Of a DNA stretch of 64,000 nt, positions 9,752 through 63,627 are shown one piece after another (the stretch's first letter is position 1; each line of letters opens with the position of its first letter). The position numbers and the translations under genes were made by a program. The notes beneath the pieces were generated by a model. That model saw only the letters and a program-made list of their open reading frames with translations, had not been told where the DNA came from and searched no databases. Source of the stretch: Candidatus Doudnabacteria bacterium RIFCSPHIGHO2_02_FULL_42_25 (GTDB taxonomy: Bacteria > Patescibacteriota > Doudnabacteria > UBA920 > O2-02-FULL-48-8); NCBI GenBank assembly GCA_001777665.1, contig MFEQ01000006.1, positions 24,309 through 88,308 on the forward strand. The letters run 5' to 3'.

Positions 9752-11233
9752 CTAAACATATCCCGGAAAGAAATCACTTTTGATATGTCTCTTGGATACA
9801 CCCATTGATTTTAACAGCTTCTCGAATGCAACAACCATGCCTCGCGGCCCTGAGACATAAAAGGTCCGATCGGACCAAATAGGTAATTCTGCTTCTAATC
9901 GCTTACGGTCAAGTAATCCATCACGATCAGTGACGACATAGATAATTTTAATTCCAAGCTTATTTGCAGCCTCTGACAAAATATCTTTATATGCAATTTC
10001 GCTCTCTGTCTTCACTGAATAGAATAAGACAATATCTCTTTTTTCTTTTTTATCTATGAGGTACTTCACCATACTCCGAAACGGGGTAATACCTATTCCA
10101 CCTGCGATAAATACTAATTTTTTAGTTGTATCTTTGGGTAGTGTAAAATCTCCGGCCAATTGTCCAGCGAGGACGGTTTCACCTGCATTAAGTGACGTTA
10201 GGGTTTGCTTAAAAGTACTGGGTTTATCATAAAATTTAATTCCTAAATCGATATGATCCTCTGTCGGTGATGATGCAATGGTGAAATAACGCCGGTTTCC
10301 TCGCAAATCATCTTTTTTGGTTTTCAAAGTCCATTCTAAATACTGACCGGGTTGGAAATTAATTTTTCGATTTGGAGTAAATTCAAACCCAAATGTCGCT
10401 GGAGCGATTTCTTTTTTTTCTTTCAGCGTCATTTTATATCTTCCCTTGTCAGAAACTAAAAACGAGAAAATGTTTCCTAAGACTAGAGCTAACTCTGGAC
10501 TAGAATACAATGGGCCTATGATAAAATTGGTTCCAGCAATAAACCCAACTATGGCTCCATAAGTAATTCGAAGTTTTCTGTTCGGGGGTGTAGTCAGCGG
10601 TTCGGTTAACATCACAAATGCAAAGTACAGTGTCGAGGAATTGATTAAGGTGCTTTTTATTGCCGACCAAGAATTGGCACCATCGGGAAGAGAAAAAACT
10701 AAACGAATCAAATAGACTATCAAAAAAGATATAACTAAATCAAAATGCTGGAGTTTCCGAGCAATCAGCAATCCTCCGACTATGACAAACGGAACTAAAT
10801 AGATATTGCCGACCCACCAACTAGCACCTTGCTGGATAACTAATAGCGTGGCAATTACAGCAATCGCAGCTGGATTGAATATGTGCTTCCCACGAAAATT
10901 AATAATGTATTTCGCGGCTTGAGAAAAAACAGCGGCCAAAACTACGAACAGCAAATCAGCCCCTGGCGTAATAATCAGAGTCAAAATCGCTGCAGTGATA
11001 TATGCAGATTCATTATTCGTGGGTACTCGAAATATTTTCGAAAAAATCCAGTTTGTAACCAAACAAACGGCAAATAAAATTAGCGACGTTTGAATAATAT
11101 CTAAAGTATCATACGGCACCCAACCAAAAAATGAAAAAATAATCGCTAAGCTGATCAATATAAGCAAAAAGTACAGCATGGCTCTGTACATAGTAATCTT
11201 ATTCAAAAAGCTATCTATGTATGGAACGGTCAT
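9752..11233 (-). CDS. Membrane-bound oxidoreductase: polytopic N-terminal domain fused to FNR-like FAD/NAD(P)-binding domain
   Basis: C-terminal RYFTIASSP (RxYS FAD motif) and GGIGITPFRSM (NAD-binding). About 260-aa hydrophobic N-terminal half. Confidence 0.5.
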   Translation of the reverse strand: MTVPYIDSFLNKITMYRAMLYFLLILISLAIIFSFFGWVPYDTLDIIQTSLILFAVCLVTNWIFSKIFRVPTNNESAYITAAILTLIITPGADLLFVVLAAVFSQAAKYIINFRGKHIFNPAAIAVIATLLVIQQGASWWVGNIYLVPFVIVGGLLIARKLQHFDLVISFLIVYLIRLVFSLPDGANSWSAIKSTLINSSTLYFAFVMLTEPLTTPPNRKLRITYGAIVGFIAGTNFIIGPLYSSPELALVLGNIFSFLVSDKGRYKMTLKEKKEIAPATFGFEFTPNRKINFQPGQYLEWTLKTKKDDLRGNRRYFTIASSPTEDHIDLGIKFYDKPSTFKQTLTSLNAGETVLAGQLAGDFTLPKDTTKKLVFIAGGIGITPFRSMVKYLIDKKEKRDIVLFYSVKTESEIAYKDILSEAANKLGIKIIYVVTDRDGLLDRKRLEAELPIWSDRTFYVSGPRGMVVAFEKLLKSMGVSKRHIKSDFFPGYV

Positions 11234-11262
11234 AACTCATTATAACAAAAATTCCCTGCAAT

Positions 11263-11337
11263 TGGCTGGGGAGGAAGGATTCGAACCTTCGAATGCCGCC
11301 TCCAAAGGGCGGTGCCTTACCGCTTGGCGACTCCCCA
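11263..11337 (-). tRNA. tRNA-Gln (anticodon UUG)
   Basis: Hand-folded cloverleaf. 7-bp acceptor stem UGGGGAG/CUCCCCA, T-arm GAAGG-UUCGAAU-CCUUC, anticodon stem CCGCC/GGCGG with loop CUUUGGA, discriminator G, encoded CCA. Confidence 0.8.
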
Positions 11338-11393
11338 ACCAATCACAGAGAATTAATTTAGCCATGTAAATATAGCATTTTTTGGAGTTTTTT

Positions 11394-11888
11394 TCAACTC
11401 TTTTGATATACAAAAACACTTCCAATCTTAGTTGATTCCCAATTCGGAAAGTGAAAAATGTTCGAGACCACACGACTGCCGGGCGGAAGCTCGGTTTTTA
11501 ATTTTTGCTCAAGCTTGCCCATAATTTTAGTAATTCCAAAAAGCATAACGACGTTGTAATCCGAAAAGTCCTGAAACCAAAAGTTTTTCCAGTGCACGAA
11601 AGCTAGATTCTGTAATCCAGCTTTTTTTATTTTATATCTCGACCACCAAACCAGTAGTGGGTTGATTTCAAATCCATGAGATTCGATTCCTAGTTTAGCT
11701 GCGGCAATTAGTATGCGCCCATCCCCAGAACCGATGTCTGCTAATCTATCTCCAGTTTTCAGCTCGGCTGCCTGGATCATTTGATCCACTGTTTCTATAT
11801 TGGTCGGTACAAATGGAGCGCCTCGAATAACCCCTAAAAAATACGTCACAACAAGGACAACTATGATTATCAAAACCTCAATAAGCAT
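11394..11888 (-). CDS. Class I SAM-dependent methyltransferase (small, N-terminal TM helix)
   Basis: DRLADIGSGDGRILIAAAKLG (motif I) ... FEINPLL. Confidence 0.5.
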   Translation of the reverse strand: MLIEVLIIIVVLVVTYFLGVIRGAPFVPTNIETVDQMIQAAELKTGDRLADIGSGDGRILIAAAKLGIESHGFEINPLLVWWSRYKIKKAGLQNLAFVHWKNFWFQDFSDYNVVMLFGITKIMGKLEQKLKTELPPGSRVVSNIFHFPNWESTKIGSVFVYQKS

Positions 11889-11909
11889 AGGGTTATTATA
11901 GCTTAACTC

Positions 11910-11938
11910 TTGACAAAATAGCCAAAAAGGAGTACAGT
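11910..11938 (+). promoter_or_regulatory. Sigma70-like promoter of GC-rich island 1 (TTGACA-17-TACAGT)
   Basis: TTGACA at 11910-11915, 17-nt spacer, TACAGT at 11933-11938. Followed by AAGGAGG at 11950-11956. Confidence 0.55.
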
Positions 11939-11965
11939 AATTTGTTCTTAAGGAGGAATAGCGCG

Positions 11966-12169
11966 ATGACCAAGAACCATCGAGACGGCGAAAAGTTCGG
12001 GGGTAATCACACTACCCTTCTAGATTTGGCCGTGACGATGGTAGACATCGCGGCCAAGTACTCTGAAGTAAAAACTATTAGTCCGGGCATGCTTCAGGTA
12101 AACCCCAACAAATCCGGCGGATCCCAGCGTGTGAAATTCGCTTGGATGAAGGGGGGGGGCTTCTTATGA
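11966..12169 (+). CDS. GC-rich island 1, ORF1 (67 aa, MTKNHRDGEKFGGNHTTLLDL...), unknown function
   Basis: ATG 8 nt after AAGGAGG. GC-rich codon usage unlike the host. Stop overlaps the next ATG (ttATGA). Confidence 0.5.
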   Translation: MTKNHRDGEKFGGNHTTLLDLAVTMVDIAAKYSEVKTISPGMLQVNPNKSGGSQRVKFAWMKGGGFL

Positions 12170-12312
12170 CCGTTCGGCAAAACCGATCGGTCCAGGAAGT
12201 TCGAGTCTACACGTCGGACACTCAGACGACCATGGTCGCGCTAGCAAGAGCCGCTCGAGACCGAGATATTCCCATCGGGTTTCTGAAGAAGGATAAGACG
12301 CAAACCTACTAG
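12166..12312 (+). CDS. GC-rich island 1, ORF2 (48 aa, MTVRQNRSVQEVRVYTSDTQTTMVALARAARDRDIPIGFLKKDKTQTY), translationally coupled
   Basis: ATGA start/stop overlap with ORF1. Not in ORF track (<60 aa). Confidence 0.45.
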   Translation: MTVRQNRSVQEVRVYTSDTQTTMVALARAARDRDIPIGFLKKDKTQTY

Positions 12313-12329
12313 GCTTGGAGGATACGCAG

Positions 12330-12791
12330 ATGGCAGTCAACGCAATGGGAGCCTCGGCGGTTGCCGAGTTGCTGGGTGACCTGACAGATCGGACGAAGTA
12401 CACTGAGGGGGTCCTGAAAGGGATGCTCGGTGTCATCCGAAACGAAGAGCTGCATCACACGACGATCATCGGCAAGATCGGAATCGTGCCGCTGTCGCTT
12501 GAGCAGCTCAACAAGCTCAAGTACGTGGACGAGGCCAACCAGAAGACGGCATTCGGTTCTGACATCGCCACGGCCATCCGGGCTGAAATGACGCGACGGA
12601 CGAGCATCAAGATCGAATTCGAGTCCCTCTTCCGGACGCTCTACGCCGGCGCAGAGTACGGACCCGAGAAAGTGATGGACGCAATCCAGCGTTACGAGGA
12701 GGCCATGCGCTCGAGCTCGACCTCGTTCGCTCCTCCCCCGCCGGTTCCAACGACGGATAGCAACGACGGCTTCGCGGCACGGACGCACTAA
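12330..12791 (+). CDS. GC-rich island 1, ORF3 (153 aa, MAVNAMGASAVAELLGDL...APPPPVPTTDSNDGFAARTH), unknown function
   Basis: GGAGGA at 12317-12322 precedes ATG 12330. ORF track offers TTG 12315. Pro-rich C-terminal tail. Confidence 0.5.
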   Translation: MAVNAMGASAVAELLGDLTDRTKYTEGVLKGMLGVIRNEELHHTTIIGKIGIVPLSLEQLNKLKYVDEANQKTAFGSDIATAIRAEMTRRTSIKIEFESLFRTLYAGAEYGPEKVMDAIQRYEEAMRSSSTSFAPPPPVPTTDSNDGFAARTH

Positions 12792-12814
12792 TCACCCGCG
12801 TCGTCAGGACGCAC

Positions 12815-12856
12815 AAACGGCGAGCCCAACACTGGGCCCGCCGTTTTTCTTTTGTT
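12815..12856 (+). terminator. Intrinsic terminator of island 1
   Basis: aaacggcgagcccaacactgggcccgccgtttttctttt. Confidence 0.65.
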
Positions 12857-12877
12857 CTATTATCTGTGACACCTGTC

Positions 12878-12909
12878 TTACCTAGTTGCCCATATGGGCA
12901 ACTAGGTAA
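12878..12909. repeat. Perfect 32-bp palindrome ttACCTAGTTGCCCATATGGGCAACTAGGTaa (CATATG-core palindrome family, copy 1)
   Basis: Identical 28-bp core at 49787-49814 and 63554-63581. Variants at 43124-43157 and 62962-62989. Confidence 0.9.
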
Positions 12910-12925
12910 TCTCTTTTTTTACTTG

Positions 12926-12957
12926 CCTCTAATTTCAGCGATCGCTGAAATTAGAGG
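12926..12957. repeat. Perfect 32-bp palindrome cctctaatttcaGCGATCGCtgaaattagagg, immediately 3' of the dnaX stop
   Basis: Self-complementary. Same GCGATCGC core as the palindrome at 43164-43195 and the direct repeats at 56335/57514. Confidence 0.85.
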
Positions 12958-12959
12958 AA

Positions 12960-14444
12960 CTAGTTCTCTACTTCCCCGCCCATAATTTTGAGGGCGGACT
13001 CCACTAACTCATCTTTTTGCTCCACTTGAGCCTCACCTTTTTGTAACGTAGGTTTTACCATCAGTTTCAGTCCCGTCACTTCTTCGATTACTTGATCGAC
13101 AACGATTCGATTCTTACGCGCTTCGATCGCATCTTTATGAAATTTATATGGAAATATCACTACCAGTTCTTTTCCTTCTATAGAAATAGGCTGAGCTAGT
13201 TTTAAACTCGAGATAAGCGAGTGGTTATATTCTTTTAGTTTTTCCAGAATCTGCGGCCAGTGAGCTTGGACTTTGGCAAATAACTCCCCCTCGCCCTCTC
13301 TTACATTAAGAGGGGGTTCCTCTGCTGCTTCATCCCCCCTTAATATAAGGGGGGATTGAGGGGGGTTATTCTCCTCGGTCGCCTCTACTGCGGCTAATTC
13401 AAGTGGCAGACTCTGGATCGATGACCATTTGATTTCACCTTCAGCTTTCTGGAATATCTGAATGATCTGCATAATTCTTGGCAATTCCAAAGCTTGGGCT
13501 TGATCCTTCATCTTCTGTGAAATTTCTTCGGTATAACCAAAATCAGAAGTTGTCCCCACTTTCGTCAACAATATTTTTCGCAAATACTCTAAAAAATCTT
13601 TTTCAAATTGATATAAATCTTTGCCCCCATAAGTCAGATCTGAAATAAAACTCACCGCTTCTTGGGTTTGATTTTCTACGAGCAGATCTAGGAATTTACT
13701 CAAAGTCTTCACGCCTGTTAAACCGAGGACTGTTTCGACTAATTCTTCAGTAATCTCGCCTTCGGCGTAATTCATAACTTGATCGAGTAGTGATAGCCCA
13801 TCTCGAAAACTGCCATCCGCAGCAGTCGCGATTTCCATCAGGGCTCCTTCACTAACTTTGATCTGATTATCGGAAGCCACATATGCGAGATGCTTGCTTA
13901 AATCTGCAATGCCGACTTTTTTAAAATCAAATCGTTGCGTCCGCGAAATAATCGTGGCTGGAACTTTATGAATTTCGGTCGTGGCCAAAATAAATACGGC
14001 ATGACTCGGTGGTTCTTCCAAAGTCTTAAGTAATGCATTAAAAGCGCCTTTTGAAAGCATGTGCACTTCATCGACAATAATCACTTTATATGTGGCCTTA
14101 GTTGGGGCAAATTGCAAATGATCGATCAATTCTCGAATATTATCCACGCCAGTGTGCGACGCCGCATCTATTTCCAGCAAATCTAAACTGGTATTCTCTA
14201 GAAATGGTTTACAGATCTCGCATTCGTTGCAGGGTTCCGAGCCTGTTCTATTCTGACAATTAATAGCCCGCGCAAAAATCCGAGCTAGCGTCGTTTTCCC
14301 GACCCCTCTGGGTCCGGTGAATAAATAAGCGTGGCCCACGCGATTATTGGCGACCGCATTGGCGAGCGTGGTTTTGATGTGTTCCTGATTGACCACGGAA
14401 CCGAAATTCAGTGGCCGATATTTTCTATACAATACTAAGTTCAT
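12960..14444 (-). CDS. dnaX: DNA polymerase III subunit gamma/tau
   Basis: Walker A GPRGVGKTT, clamp-loader motifs. Contains an in-frame GC-rich insertion (about 13290-13375) encoding EENNPPQSPLILRGDEAAEEPPLNVREGEGE. Confidence 0.85.
   Translation of the reverse strand: MNLVLYRKYRPLNFGSVVNQEHIKTTLANAVANNRVGHAYLFTGPRGVGKTTLARIFARAINCQNRTGSEPCNECEICKPFLENTSLDLLEIDAASHTGVDNIRELIDHLQFAPTKATYKVIIVDEVHMLSKGAFNALLKTLEEPPSHAVFILATTEIHKVPATIISRTQRFDFKKVGIADLSKHLAYVASDNQIKVSEGALMEIATAADGSFRDGLSLLDQVMNYAEGEITEELVETVLGLTGVKTLSKFLDLLVENQTQEAVSFISDLTYGGKDLYQFEKDFLEYLRKILLTKVGTTSDFGYTEEISQKMKDQAQALELPRIMQIIQIFQKAEGEIKWSSIQSLPLELAAVEATEENNPPQSPLILRGDEAAEEPPLNVREGEGELFAKVQAHWPQILEKLKEYNHSLISSLKLAQPISIEGKELVVIFPYKFHKDAIEARKNRIVVDQVIEEVTGLKLMVKPTLQKGEAQVEQKDELVESALKIMGGEVEN
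13334..13374. repeat. Copy of the ccccttaatataagggg-ggttag-gaggggttat element embedded in-frame in dnaX
   Basis: ccccccttaatataaggggggattgaggggggttattctcc. Compare 60616-60669 and 21040-21085 (reverse orientation). Confidence 0.65.
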
Positions 14445-61479: not shown

Positions 61480-61509
61480 TTGACAAAAACACCCAAAAAA
61501 CAGTATACT
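61480..61509 (+). promoter_or_regulatory. Sigma70-like promoter (TTGACA-18-TATACT) of GC island; followed by SD + 6-codon uORF (MQPLRS, 61545-61565) and an 11-bp-stem hairpin (61580-61631)
   Basis: TTGACA 61480-61485, TATACT 61504-61509, AAGGAGG 61533-61539, inverted repeat gcagaagagtg/cactcttctgc. Confidence 0.5.
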
Positions 61510-61650
61510 TATACGTTGCACATTTCGTGCACAAGGAGGATAAGATGCAACCTTTACGTAGTTAGATTTTGAACTCACTGCAGAAGAGTGCTTATAACTT
61601 CAGATAATCCTGTCTGATCCACTCTTCTGCTAACAGCAGAGGAGAGGGTC

Positions 61651-62265
61651 ATGATCAGGAACATCGCAGACGCGTCAGAACAGTACCACAACGCCGTCAA
61701 CGCCTGCCGCGAGGTCTTCGCGGCGGCCGAGCGCGAATTCGTAGAGCCGAAGGGCGTGAAAGCCCACATCGAGGAAGCGCGGCGGCTCTACGCGGAACTG
61801 GGTGACGAGGCGTCAGCCGTGAAAGAGGTGGACAATGCAAGGCAGTGGCTGATCGGGATCGCCGGGAAGTTCTTGCGCGGTGCGGTCGAGTTCTTCGGCG
61901 ACCGCATCTACGAGCTCTCCTACATGTCGCTCGACCGCGACATCGTCGAGAACATGCAGGCTAGGTTGCGCGAGTACGAGGAAGCAGTGCGCGTCGGCGA
62001 AGCCAGCAGCTTCGAGGTACGACTCACCGCATACAAAAAACTCGCGACCGTGGTCAACGGCGCGCGCACGGAGCAGCAGCGGCGCATCGAGCACCGCGAG
62101 AAGCTGGCGCAGGAACGCGCTGAACGGGAGCAACACGAACGTCGGCGGCGTCGGGAGGAAGAAGCCGAGGCCGATCGCGTTCGAGCGAAGCAGCAACAGG
62201 AGGCTGCTGAGGCTGCGGCGCGCGAGGAACGCGCGAAGCAGTTCGACGAGCTCTTCGGAGCTTAG
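61651..62265 (+). CDS. GC-rich island ORF (204 aa) with highly charged C-terminal helix (ERAEREQHERRRRREEEAEADRVRAKQQQEAAE)
   Basis: ATG 6 nt after GAGAGGG. GC-rich. Confidence 0.5.
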   Translation: MIRNIADASEQYHNAVNACREVFAAAEREFVEPKGVKAHIEEARRLYAELGDEASAVKEVDNARQWLIGIAGKFLRGAVEFFGDRIYELSYMSLDRDIVENMQARLREYEEAVRVGEASSFEVRLTAYKKLATVVNGARTEQQRRIEHREKLAQERAEREQHERRRRREEEAEADRVRAKQQQEAAEAAAREERAKQFDELFGA

Positions 62266-62267
62266 GG

Positions 62268-62308
62268 GGTCCCTAGGGGTGTGGCACACAGGTGCCCGCC
62301 CCTTTTTC
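62268..62308 (+). terminator. Intrinsic terminator
   Basis: GC hairpin ...ggcacacaggtgcccgcccctttttc. Confidence 0.55.
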
Positions 62309-62323
62309 ATTTCCAGGTTAGGG

Positions 62324-62352
62324 TTGACAGTGGCCTCAAAATCTTATATACT
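62324..62352 (+). promoter_or_regulatory. Sigma70-like promoter (TTGACA-17-TATACT) with about 170-nt structured leader
   Basis: TTGACA 62324-62329, TATACT 62347-62352. Leader hairpins gcggcaacttcgccgc and ccgctcgcgg. AGGAGG 62514-62519. Confidence 0.5.
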
Positions 62353-62525
62353 GTTAAGCTTTAAACGGAGAAAGTTTCGTTAGCCCTGTCTGCTAAGCGA
62401 AACGGGAAAAGCAACTCAAAAAGAGCGAACGCAAGATCATATCAAACAAGTAACTCTAATTGAATGCAGCTTCGCGGCAACTTCGCCGCAAGTTTACCCG
62501 TCCGCTCGCGGACAGGAGGTCAACC

Positions 62526-62888
62526 ATGCCTGACCCACAGGACATGGACCCCACGGTCGCTCAGTTCGCTGAGGACCTGAAGTACACCCAGTGCCACGCT
62601 GAGGTTCACTACCTCAGTGTGGATGGGACGCCCCGGATGCTACGGTTCCACCCGTGGACATCCGTACTTGTCGAAGTCTCTGAGGACTGCCTAAAGGTGG
62701 TCGAGAGATTCGATAAGCGCCCCGGGGAAACCTGGAGCGAGAAGACGACGGTGATCGAGCTGAATAAGCTCTTGATCGCCAAACTCTTCGACTGCGAGGG
62801 ATGTGAACGATGCGACGACAAAGGGTCGGGCGCATTGTGGACATTCTTGCAGGGGCAACGTTCTAGGAGTACTTGGGGGTACTGTTAG
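62526..62888 (+). CDS. GC-rich island ORF (120 aa, MPDPQDMDPTVAQFAEDL...CEGCERCDD), unknown; C-terminal Cys cluster
   Basis: ATG 6 nt after AGGAGG. ORF track gives upstream ATG 62460, which lacks an SD. Confidence 0.5.
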   Translation: MPDPQDMDPTVAQFAEDLKYTQCHAEVHYLSVDGTPRMLRFHPWTSVLVEVSEDCLKVVERFDKRPGETWSEKTTVIELNKLLIAKLFDCEGCERCDDKGSGALWTFLQGQRSRSTWGYC

Positions 62889-62896
62889 AATAAACA

Positions 62897-62932
62897 CCCG
62901 GGCGACACGCAGTGTCCCCGGGTTTTTCTTTT
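62897..62932 (+). terminator. Intrinsic terminator (cccgggcgacacgcagtgtccccggg + T-run)
   Basis: Near-perfect stem with 1-nt bulge, then tttttctttt. Confidence 0.7.
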
Positions 62933-62961
62933 CCCCAATTCCTTACACATACCAACCTTTT

Positions 62962-62989
62962 TACCTAGTTGGCCATATGGGCATTTAGG
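62962..62989. repeat. Degenerate copy of the CATATG-core palindrome (acctagttgGccatatgggcaTTtaggt)
   Basis: Three substitutions relative to the perfect copies. Lies between the GC island and the Cas2-like gene. Confidence 0.7.
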
Positions 62990-62994
62990 TAAAG

Positions 62995-63546: not shown

Positions 63547-63553
63547 ATTCTAT

Positions 63554-63581
63554 ACCTAGTTGCCCATATGGGCAACTAGGT
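63554..63581. repeat. Perfect 28-bp palindrome ACCTAGTTGCCCATATGGGCAACTAGGT (copy 3), 8 nt upstream of the Cas2-like gene start
   Basis: Identical to copies 1 and 2. Confidence 0.9.
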
Positions 63582-63627
63582 TACGGGTGTACCCAGTTGT
63601 TCACTTATTAAAAAGACTTGTTCTTAA

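Follow-up and report, generated by a model that had tools for sequence, protein, structure and literature searches.

A DUF2103 gene split by a frameshift at a run of nine G's in a GC-rich cassette of a Candidatus Doudnabacteria genome

Are the three small open reading frames (ORFs) that follow one another at positions 11966-12791 of the DNA analysed here three genes, or fewer? The stretch, hereafter the window, comprises 64,000 nucleotides of contig MFEQ01000006.1 from Candidatus Doudnabacteria bacterium RIFCSPHIGHO2_02_FULL_42_25. The ORFs lie on its forward strand in an island of 50-67% GC, compared with ~40% for the window average and the surroundings. An initial annotation, made from the letters of the sequence, read ORF1 (67 residues; 11966-12169), ORF2 (48 residues; 12166-12312) and ORF3 (153 residues; 12330-12791) as a translationally coupled three-gene operon of a toxin-antitoxin, phage-like or regulatory kind. 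Much of what it described is present: the ORF coordinates, the ATGA shared by ORF1 and ORF2 (12166-12169), the 17-nt spacer with a Shine-Dalgarno sequence of its own for ORF3, the GC island, and a single promoter (TTGACA-17-TACAGT, 11910-11938) and terminator (12809-12844) that enclose the unit. What it overlooked is a run of nine G's (G9) just ahead of the ORF1 stop codon. We report here that ORF1 and ORF2 are, almost certainly, one gene of the DUF2103 family (PF09876) that has been split by a frameshift at this run.

One DUF2103 gene in two reading frames

On its own, ORF1 scores 24.5 bits against PF09876, above the gathering threshold of 22.4 bits, and aligns to profile positions 4-56 of 98; the remark that no ORF looks by eye like a member of a known family is thus not borne out. 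Joining ORF1 and ORF2 across G9 gives a single protein of 114 or 115 residues. With the fused sequence the score rises to 42.3 bits (E 7e-11), and the alignment extends across the junction to cover profile positions 4-87 of 98. A frameshift-corrected reading as a single larger gene is what the initial annotation had itself named as evidence against its three-gene operon.

The homologues of the fused protein are continuous. In a search that covered 5.8 billion protein clusters, six homologues of 112-114 residues share 72-83% identity with it over 97-100% of its length. A profile search added ~100 further homologues, mostly of 104-120 residues (range 97-134), which are overwhelmingly single ORFs. 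Those with named hosts come from the Parcubacteria/Candidate Phyla Radiation (CPR), namely Yanofsky-, Wolfe-, Pace- and Doudnabacteria. Across the junction, the close homologues align as W-[IM]-K-G-G-L-L-M-T. At the four homologue junctions for which DNA was read, the glycines are encoded by mixed codons (ATGGGCGGTCTG, AAAGGAGGGCTT, AAGGGCGGACTC, AAGGGGGGCATT) and no run of G's exceeds six. Two short matches were considered as further split members and set aside: P0096, a candidate second frameshifted DUF2103 gene, lies on a 737-bp chimeric contig of 1.6x coverage where it is fused to an ABC-ATPase fragment, and P0089 is a C-terminal fragment.

The ATGA overlap had been taken as a sign of translational coupling. 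ATGAC is found in the three closest homologues with DNA read, where its ATG is a conserved internal methionine codon, and the TGA of the ATGA is the first out-of-frame stop after the shift. Because ATGAC sits in unsplit homologues, the overlap arises incidentally where the shifted frame meets its first stop, and the case for coupling falls with it.

An AlphaFold2 model of the fused protein, built from a 56-sequence alignment, forms one compact α-β4-α-β domain with a predicted local distance difference test (pLDDT) score of 83 and a predicted template modelling (pTM) score of 0.75. Structure prediction of each ORF had been suggested as a check on the operon, and it returned one domain for ORF1 and ORF2 together and a low-confidence model for ORF3 (pLDDT 57.6). 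In the model of the fused protein, residues 62-66 at the junction form the loop between strands 55-60 and 66-72. Since the junction falls between two strands of one sheet, each apparent ORF would encode half a β-sheet. A continuous DUF2103 ORF of ~100-115 residues is not found in the window DNA, in which two G's would have to be removed or one added to restore it.

Among 56 CPR members of the family, H15 and T17 are invariant and G8, K10, G13, T16, K57, R71 and Q77 are nearly so; these residues are placed in the glycine-rich N-terminal loop and on the sheet. The family name implies a 'predicted metal-binding' Cys/His cluster; the window protein has no cysteine, and H15 and T17 are the only invariant positions in these CPR members. 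The pattern of conserved residues would fit a small nucleic-acid- or nucleotide-directed protein. A search of solved structures with the DUF2103 profile gave chance-level matches only, and a search for structural homologues with the model gave none that was confident. The only literature that we found on the family ties DUF2103-like domains to effector roles in defence systems, and no confident structural homologue was found there either (PMC12065111). Going by that literature, DUF2103 may be a nucleic-acid-directed effector. The model also matches a 92-residue viral protein in BFVD (A0A5P8D682), with a target-normalised TM score of 0.81, a root-mean-square deviation of 1.7 Å over 87 columns and 22% identity, which places the DUF2103 fold in at least one virus.

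The G9 tract and the state of the gene

The G9 tract at 12151-12159 is the only run of seven or more G's or C's in the 64 kb, where chance alone would give ~0.01-0.02 runs of nine G's. With seven G's the sequence would read AAG GGG GGG CTT (K-G-G-L), like the homologues, and ten G's would also restore the frame with one additional glycine. Counted from the homologue-like seven, nine G's amount to a shift of +2, so that ORF2 lies in the -1 frame of ORF1. ORF1 therefore consists of DUF2103 residues 1-64, an out-of-frame G-F-L tail and a premature TGA. The C-terminal part of the protein (LLMTVRQ...TQTY) occupies the ORF2 frame at 12160-12312, up to the TAG at 12310-12312, and the 48-residue ORF2 is this frame as called from its ATG at 12166.

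The frameshift looks real: its position and sign are established, and it is reproduced across assemblies. At least 24 contigs (40 index blocks), drawn from NCBI metagenome-assembled genomes (MAGs), JGI/IMG and ENA, encode the exact 67-residue ORF1 product, which requires exactly nine G's, and Logan lists the protein. The nine G's were read directly in L013, L014, L015 and L016, and L001 aligns across the tract without gaps at 99.98% identity. Positions 10466-13669 of the window are 100% identical to contig MFFA01000003.1 (GCA_001780055.1) and to one JGI contig; judging from their names, the RIFCSP-series Doudnabacteria MAGs presumably come from the Rifle aquifer. Two single-nucleotide variants (K36N and W60C) share the same truncation. 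No intact allele above 83% identity was found in the 5.8 billion protein clusters, and exact-pattern scans of metagenome and genome contig sets for further assemblies of the tract returned no match. Neither a tract-length polymorphism nor an in-frame length was seen among L001 and L013-L016, which are assemblies in which minority variants could go unseen. Because G9 recurs across assemblies and variants and no intact allele is recorded, random sequencing error is unlikely.

The assemblies show two further peculiarities near the tract. Contigs of three independent assemblies break at 12291-12310. L016 ends at 12291, which in this MEGAHIT k141 contig is exactly k-1 (140) bases past the first G of the tract; L015 ends at 12310; and L007 starts at 12308, with six mismatches confined to the initial 27 nt and the following 10.4 kb free of them. 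These breaks could stem from heterogeneity of the tract or strain, from a recombination edge at the junction between DUF2103 and ORF3, or from poor coverage of the GC-rich hairpin region. A reading of the mismatches near the L007 and L016 ends as recombination or hypervariability was downgraded, as they lie within read length of the ends and may be assembly noise. The two variants, at 12073 (K36N, the one mismatch of L001 in 5560 bp) and at 12145 (W60C, the one mismatch of L016 in 6483 bp), are both nonsynonymous and both within the 204-bp ORF1. The chance of both sole differences falling there is ~0.001, with the L016 site lying near a contig end and the G run.

Downstream of the shift, the coding sequence has not decayed. 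Between the C-terminal half and intact homologues, 0.053-0.063 of the nonsynonymous sites have changed, and intact genes compared with one another give 0.057-0.089; dN/dS for this half is 0.03-0.07 (0.03-0.09 overall), likewise no different from the intact-versus-intact comparisons. The absence of decay implies that the shift is either very recent or tolerated. The sampled population is near-clonal, with 99.98% identity and one mismatch per 5.5-6.5 kb.

Immediately 3' of the tract, folding predicts an RNA hairpin on the forward strand (12160-12199; 15 pairs in three helices) that holds the ORF2 ATG and the ORF1 stop. Its predicted energy is -18.7 kcal/mol (z = -5.3, with none of 200 shuffles as stable), a statistic that is partly circular as the structure was derived from the same sequence. 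In the three closest intact homologues, the corresponding segment folds to -4.9 to -9.2 kcal/mol (z ~0). The hairpin ranks in the top 0.6% of the 41-mers of the window and in the top 2.8% within coding sequence of the GC island. Only three positions in the 41-nt stretch (12165, 12172 and 12177) differ from all three homologues, and each adds a stem pair. Reverting the three substitutions gives -11.7 kcal/mol, a loss of 7 kcal/mol, and three random substitutions reach -18.7 kcal/mol in ~0.15% of trials. In the ORF1 frame, a G_GGG_GGG heptamer stands at 12151-12157, and the start of ORF2 lies 200 nt from that of ORF1, an offset of +2 or, equivalently, -1; the heptamer carries little weight, as any nine-base homopolymer gives an in-frame X_XXY_YYZ. 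From heptamer to hairpin the distance is 2 nt for the outer helix and 10 nt for the GC-rich inner helix, with ~5-9 nt being typical. The arrangement is not conserved among the orthologues, which are overwhelmingly single ORFs (four DNA junctions read).

On balance, and with some reserve, we regard it as most likely that DUF2103 is switched off by the +2 G shift and that ORF3 is still expressed. Synonymous changes would have turned the K-G-G codons into a run of G's (AAG GGG GGG), and replication slippage may have added two more, taking the run from seven to nine. The ribosome would then leave the DUF2103 frame after Gly64, read G-F-L and halt at the first out-of-frame TGA. The main product would be a 67-residue half-domain, with no full-length protein made, and DUF2103 would thereby be off. 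The gene would be either a pseudogene of very recent origin or in an OFF state set by a hypermutable tract, with reversion possible at seven or ten G's. If DUF2103 is a costly effector, its silencing at a slippery tract would make sense. Several observations weigh against a gene that is off. Sampling of a near-clonal population means that the fixation of G9 says little about selection, and the undecayed C-terminal half fits continued translation equally well. The strong, lineage-specific hairpin resembles a frameshift stimulator and is not expected in a dead gene. Moreover, G9 is in every assembly and no ON-length allele was seen, where a locus that switches frequently should show some.

Recoding is a tentative alternative, which we consider possible and rather doubtful. 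G9 and the 3' hairpin would act as a -1 ribosomal frameshift site, or RNA polymerase would slip and add one G, and some full-length 115-residue DUF2103 (K-G-G-G-L-L-M-T) would be made, with reduced or regulated function. ORF2 does lie in the -1 frame of ORF1 behind an in-frame heptamer, the hairpin is absent in intact homologues and gains its 7 kcal/mol from three lineage-specific substitutions, the C-terminal half is undecayed, and the frameshift is fixed in all assemblies, those with single-nucleotide variants included. However, the arrangement occurs in one near-clonal population only and not among the ~100 homologues (with DNA read at four junctions), the spacing of 2 nt and 10 nt to the two helices is atypical, and the circularity in the hairpin statistic lessens its force. 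All-G heptamers are weak slippery sites in E. coli, and RNA-polymerase slippage is best documented on A/T runs. A split in the middle of a compact domain also leaves no plausible pair of useful products. A wider proposal, taken as a whole, seems to us similarly uncertain: that G9 and the lineage-specific hairpin are a working switch for an effector-like DUF2103, whether they rescue the gene by -1 frameshifting or slippage or serve as a poly-G contingency locus that can revert, and that the unit comes from a pool of cassettes exchanged among CPR bacteria. Its second part holds that promoter-gene-terminator cassettes rich in GC at third codon positions (GC3) are reshuffled among CPR bacteria and stay GC-rich even at syntenic sites, in genomes with host proteins of only 58-67% identity. 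The literature searched describes no site of recoding or phase variation in CPR bacteria, and no such pool of cassettes.

The remaining explanations are much harder to sustain. It is improbable that both halves are made and assemble non-covalently, with ORF2 translated by termination-reinitiation at the ATGA and the G run serving as a Shine-Dalgarno mimic. The overlap, the G-rich stretch 6 nt ahead of the ATG and the intact C-terminal half would suit such a split gene, as would a break in a loop between two β-strands, where split proteins sometimes complement. Yet with a conserved internal methionine at the ATG and ATGAC in unsplit homologues, nothing here evolved for coupling; the halves share one β-sheet in the model and would be unstable alone; and no other member is split in this way, the two short matches being the C-terminal fragment P0089 and the low-coverage chimeric contig. 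That the true genome has seven or ten G's and an intact gene, so that the frameshift is an artefact of sequencing or assembly, is very improbable. Homopolymers are prone to errors, contigs end or begin close together just downstream of the tract, at 12291, 12308 and 12310, and the end of the MEGAHIT k141 contig at k-1 past the first G hints at trouble or heterogeneity at the tract. Against this, G9 stands in five directly read loci from NCBI, JGI and ENA, the G9-dependent ORF1 on its at least 24 contigs came through several pipelines, and no in-frame allele is recorded in the protein databases searched; Illumina indel errors are rare, and a consistent +2 error would be very unusual. Least credible of all is the operon of three independent small genes forming a toxin-antitoxin-like module. 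Small, tightly spaced ORFs between one promoter and one terminator do invite it, and DUF2103-like domains are tied to defence effector roles (PMC12065111). But ORF1 and ORF2 are halves of one domain, and no toxin, antitoxin, defence or phage match was obtained with hidden Markov models. Nor do DUF2103 and ORF3 recur as adjacent genes in the other loci read: the gene after DUF2103 differs or is missing, with DUF2103 solo in L003, L010 and L011, unrelated partners in L002, L008 and L009, and no adjacent ORF3 homologue in any of these six loci.

ORF3 and the cassette

The locus is a two-gene accessory cassette, made of a promoter, the DUF2103 gene, ORF3 and a terminator, in a Candidatus Doudnabacteria genome of ~40% GC. 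Of the operon first described, the single self-contained transcription unit in a foreign island stands, and the number of genes is two. All cassette features are on the forward strand. The sigma-70-like promoter matches the consensus at 10 of 12 positions. The Shine-Dalgarno sequence of the DUF2103 gene, AAGGAGG at 11950-11956, is 9 nt ahead of the ATG at 11966. After the ORF2 frame comes the spacer (12313-12329), in which the GGAGG of ORF3 (12317-12321) lies 8 nt ahead of the ATG at 12330; from this site, ORF3 is probably still translated on the shared transcript. The intrinsic terminator of the cassette has a stem of CGGCGAGCCC and GGGCCCGCCG followed by TTTTTCTTTT, and 41-mers starting at 12803-12818 fold to as low as -22.3 kcal/mol. 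A second hairpin follows at 12878-12919, formed by a 32-nt perfect palindrome with a T-run that is a dispersed host repeat with four copies in the window; it is a probable bidirectional terminator shared with dnaX. An Rfam scan of the island found the tRNA-Gln only, and no riboswitch or known RNA. An antisense ORF at 12309-12788 (159 residues) was rejected as a by-product of high GC, judged on the evidence for ORF3 alone, to which the homologues and the Shine-Dalgarno sequence belong.

GC3 is 0.60 in the DUF2103 gene and 0.78 in ORF3, and 0.35-0.44 in host genes. This contrast at synonymous sites, together with the GC-rich composition, marks the cassette as foreign. It is flanked by a tRNA-Gln and a methyltransferase gene on one side and by dnaX on the other.

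ORF3 is a real gene of a nearly orphan family with four known members, to judge from its homologues and Shine-Dalgarno sequence. Among 1.84 billion representative proteins its only relatives are P0011 (99% identity), P0103 (35%) and P0104 (34%), and hhalign adds a 135-residue ORF of L002 (probability 96%, E 3e-9). The GC content of ORF3 by codon position (0.58, 0.44 and 0.78) is a coding-type pattern. Its members share the motif E[LM]LGDLTDR..Y in their N-terminal part, an extended helical stretch and a proline-rich tail; the ORF3 model is helical and too poor for a fold search. ORF3 has no match in Pfam, PHROGs, NCBIfam or PADLOC, and a search of solved structures gave chance-level matches only. 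In scans of ORF2, ORF3 and the other cassette proteins against the same four collections, DUF2103 was the only usable match.

The surroundings of the ORF3 relatives vary. In L012, whose host proteins are 58-67% identical to those of the window, a relative of ORF3 stands at the same locus between tRNA-Gln and dnaX, behind a different GC-rich gene of 280 residues with a hydrophobic N-terminus, possibly a signal peptide as judged by eye. In L002, the relative is the cassette next after the DUF2103 cassette. Thus two of the three family members with readable context (of four known) are within ~1 kb of a DUF2103 gene, and relatives also occur without an adjacent DUF2103. The proximity is suggestive of a functional pair, with too few cases to call.

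The DUF2103 unit appears elsewhere with other content. The promoter travels with the gene, as blastn aligns window positions 11902-12315 at 72% to the L002 promoter, leader and gene, and DUF2103 genes have 55-58% GC in hosts of 37% or 51% GC. The following gene encodes 185 or 186 residues in L002, 143 in L008 and 122 in L009, none of them a homologue of ORF3, and where DUF2103 is solo (L003, L010 and L011) a housekeeping gene comes next. The L009 partner is homologous to the gene of another window cassette (62526-62888; E 3e-8), and the L009 cassette is elsewhere in its chromosome, abutting a DNA-alkylation-repair gene whose protein is 65% identical to that of the window. We found no sign of a phage origin: there was no tblastn match in 50,697 phage records and none in IMG/VR, PHROGs or PADLOC. 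L008, a 1674-bp Logan contig (SRR33270628) with 59% GC throughout, has DUF2103 tightly placed between ORFs of 271 and 143 residues with no AT-rich promoter; it may be a fragment of a GC-rich source of cassettes.

At least four more GC-rich self-contained cassettes lie on the forward strand between minus-strand housekeeping genes of the window, at 49225-49780, 55800-56330, 61480-62310 and 62325-62930, and similar ones occur in other CPR contigs (L002, 800-1830 and 1855-2460; L012, 3990-5570). Each runs from a near-consensus promoter (often TTGACAAAA-N6-AAAA...TAnAnT) through a leader and a Shine-Dalgarno sequence to a small ORF without a Pfam match (GC3 0.55-0.79), and closes with a terminator. 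The TTGACAAAA-N6-AAAA motif of the DUF2103 promoter also heads the cassettes at 55800 and 61480, and other CPR contigs show this layout and some of the gene families again, differently combined. The cassette at 61651 carries a 5' leader of ~150 nt (region 61480-61650) with a six-codon mini-ORF, ATG CAA CCT TTA CGT AGT TAG, behind its own AAGGAGG, and with a strong hairpin of -23.5 kcal/mol near 61610; no Rfam match was found for this leader, which may serve leader-peptide or attenuator-type control.

The four copies of the 32-nt palindrome TTACCTAGTTGCCCATATGGGCAACTAGGTAA are at 12878-12909, 49785-49816, 62961-62992 and 63552-63583, with 0-3 mismatches and none expected by chance. Three of the four are just downstream of GC-rich cassettes, and the palindrome may serve as a dispersed bidirectional terminator or bind a protein. 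Two cassettes are also followed by other palindromes, perfect or nearly so and centred on GCGATCGC, at 12926-12957 and 56330-56365 (CCTCTAATTTCAGCGATCGCTGAAATTAGAGG, TACGTATTTTATGCGATCGCGCATTTTACGTA). An integron gene cassette with an attC site was rejected as a reading: the unit has its own promoter, the palindrome lacks the GTTRRRY core and is a repeat dispersed in the host DNA, and the cassettes are scattered rather than arrayed. Some 600 nt upstream of the cassette, at 11263-11337 on the minus strand, stands the tRNA-Gln(TTG) gene. L012 lacks the methyltransferase gene (window 11394-11888), and ~100 nt separate its tRNA from the start of the cassette promoter, by which the interval between tRNA-Gln and dnaX looks like a hot spot of cassette gain and loss.

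Comparison with known systems

The novelty of the locus is low, since it holds a damaged member of a known family, and our analysis mainly corrects its annotation. Public annotations of these Doudnabacteria MAGs give a hypothetical protein of 67 residues and lack the gene's second half; proper annotation would give one frameshifted DUF2103 gene and one orphan gene, rather than a three-gene or toxin-antitoxin module. If the G run and hairpin were a functional switch or recoding site, they would open a seldom available way into the gene regulation of uncultured CPR bacteria, and the GC3-rich self-transcribed cassettes may reveal how these bacteria gain and shuffle accessory genes.

Poly-G/C contingency tracts are known from Neisseria lgt/pgtA and from Campylobacter (PMC2192423, PMC6321876); as in the window, a G tract of at least eight within the frame puts the gene out of frame, and a single-G change would restore it. 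The window differs in that no length variation was seen in at least five directly read assemblies and in that there is one tract in 64 kb. We know of no description of phase variation in the host, an uncultured CPR bacterium.

Programmed -1 frameshifting of the dnaX or IS-element type combines a slippery heptamer and a stem-loop with a downstream -1 frame. The window likewise has an in-frame X_XXY_YYZ, a stable stem-loop and a -1 frame downstream, whereas its heptamer is all G, its spacing is atypical, the arrangement is not conserved in orthologues, and the split falls inside one domain rather than between modules.

Phage 'morons' are units of promoter, ORF and terminator with deviant composition. 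The window cassette is alike in being self-contained, in its deviant composition and in its exchangeable content, but it is outside a prophage, flanked by tRNA-Gln, the methyltransferase gene and dnaX, and has no relatives in phages or IMG/VR. It is best described as a self-transcribed accessory cassette of foreign composition and moron-like anatomy amid housekeeping genes.

A DUF2103-like effector domain forms the C-terminus of Menshen NsnC, and DUF2103 is also associated with CRISPR type III (PMC12065111). The Menshen and CRISPR-associated domains are of the same Pfam family as the window domain or distantly related to it. The window domain stands alone, with no inPIN, no CRISPR-Cas or Menshen neighbours and no PADLOC match.

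The closest likeness is to the DUF2103 proteins of Parcubacteria/CPR (for example P0001-P0006, and those of Yanofskybacteria and Wolfebacteria), which resemble the frame-corrected window protein at 72-83% identity and have the same conserved residues. Their genes, like that of the window, are monocistronic-style units with a strong promoter and terminator and a GC content raised to 55-58% relative to the host. Within this group, the gene of the window is the only examined member with a G run and a frameshift, and it is followed by ORF3 in the same transcript.

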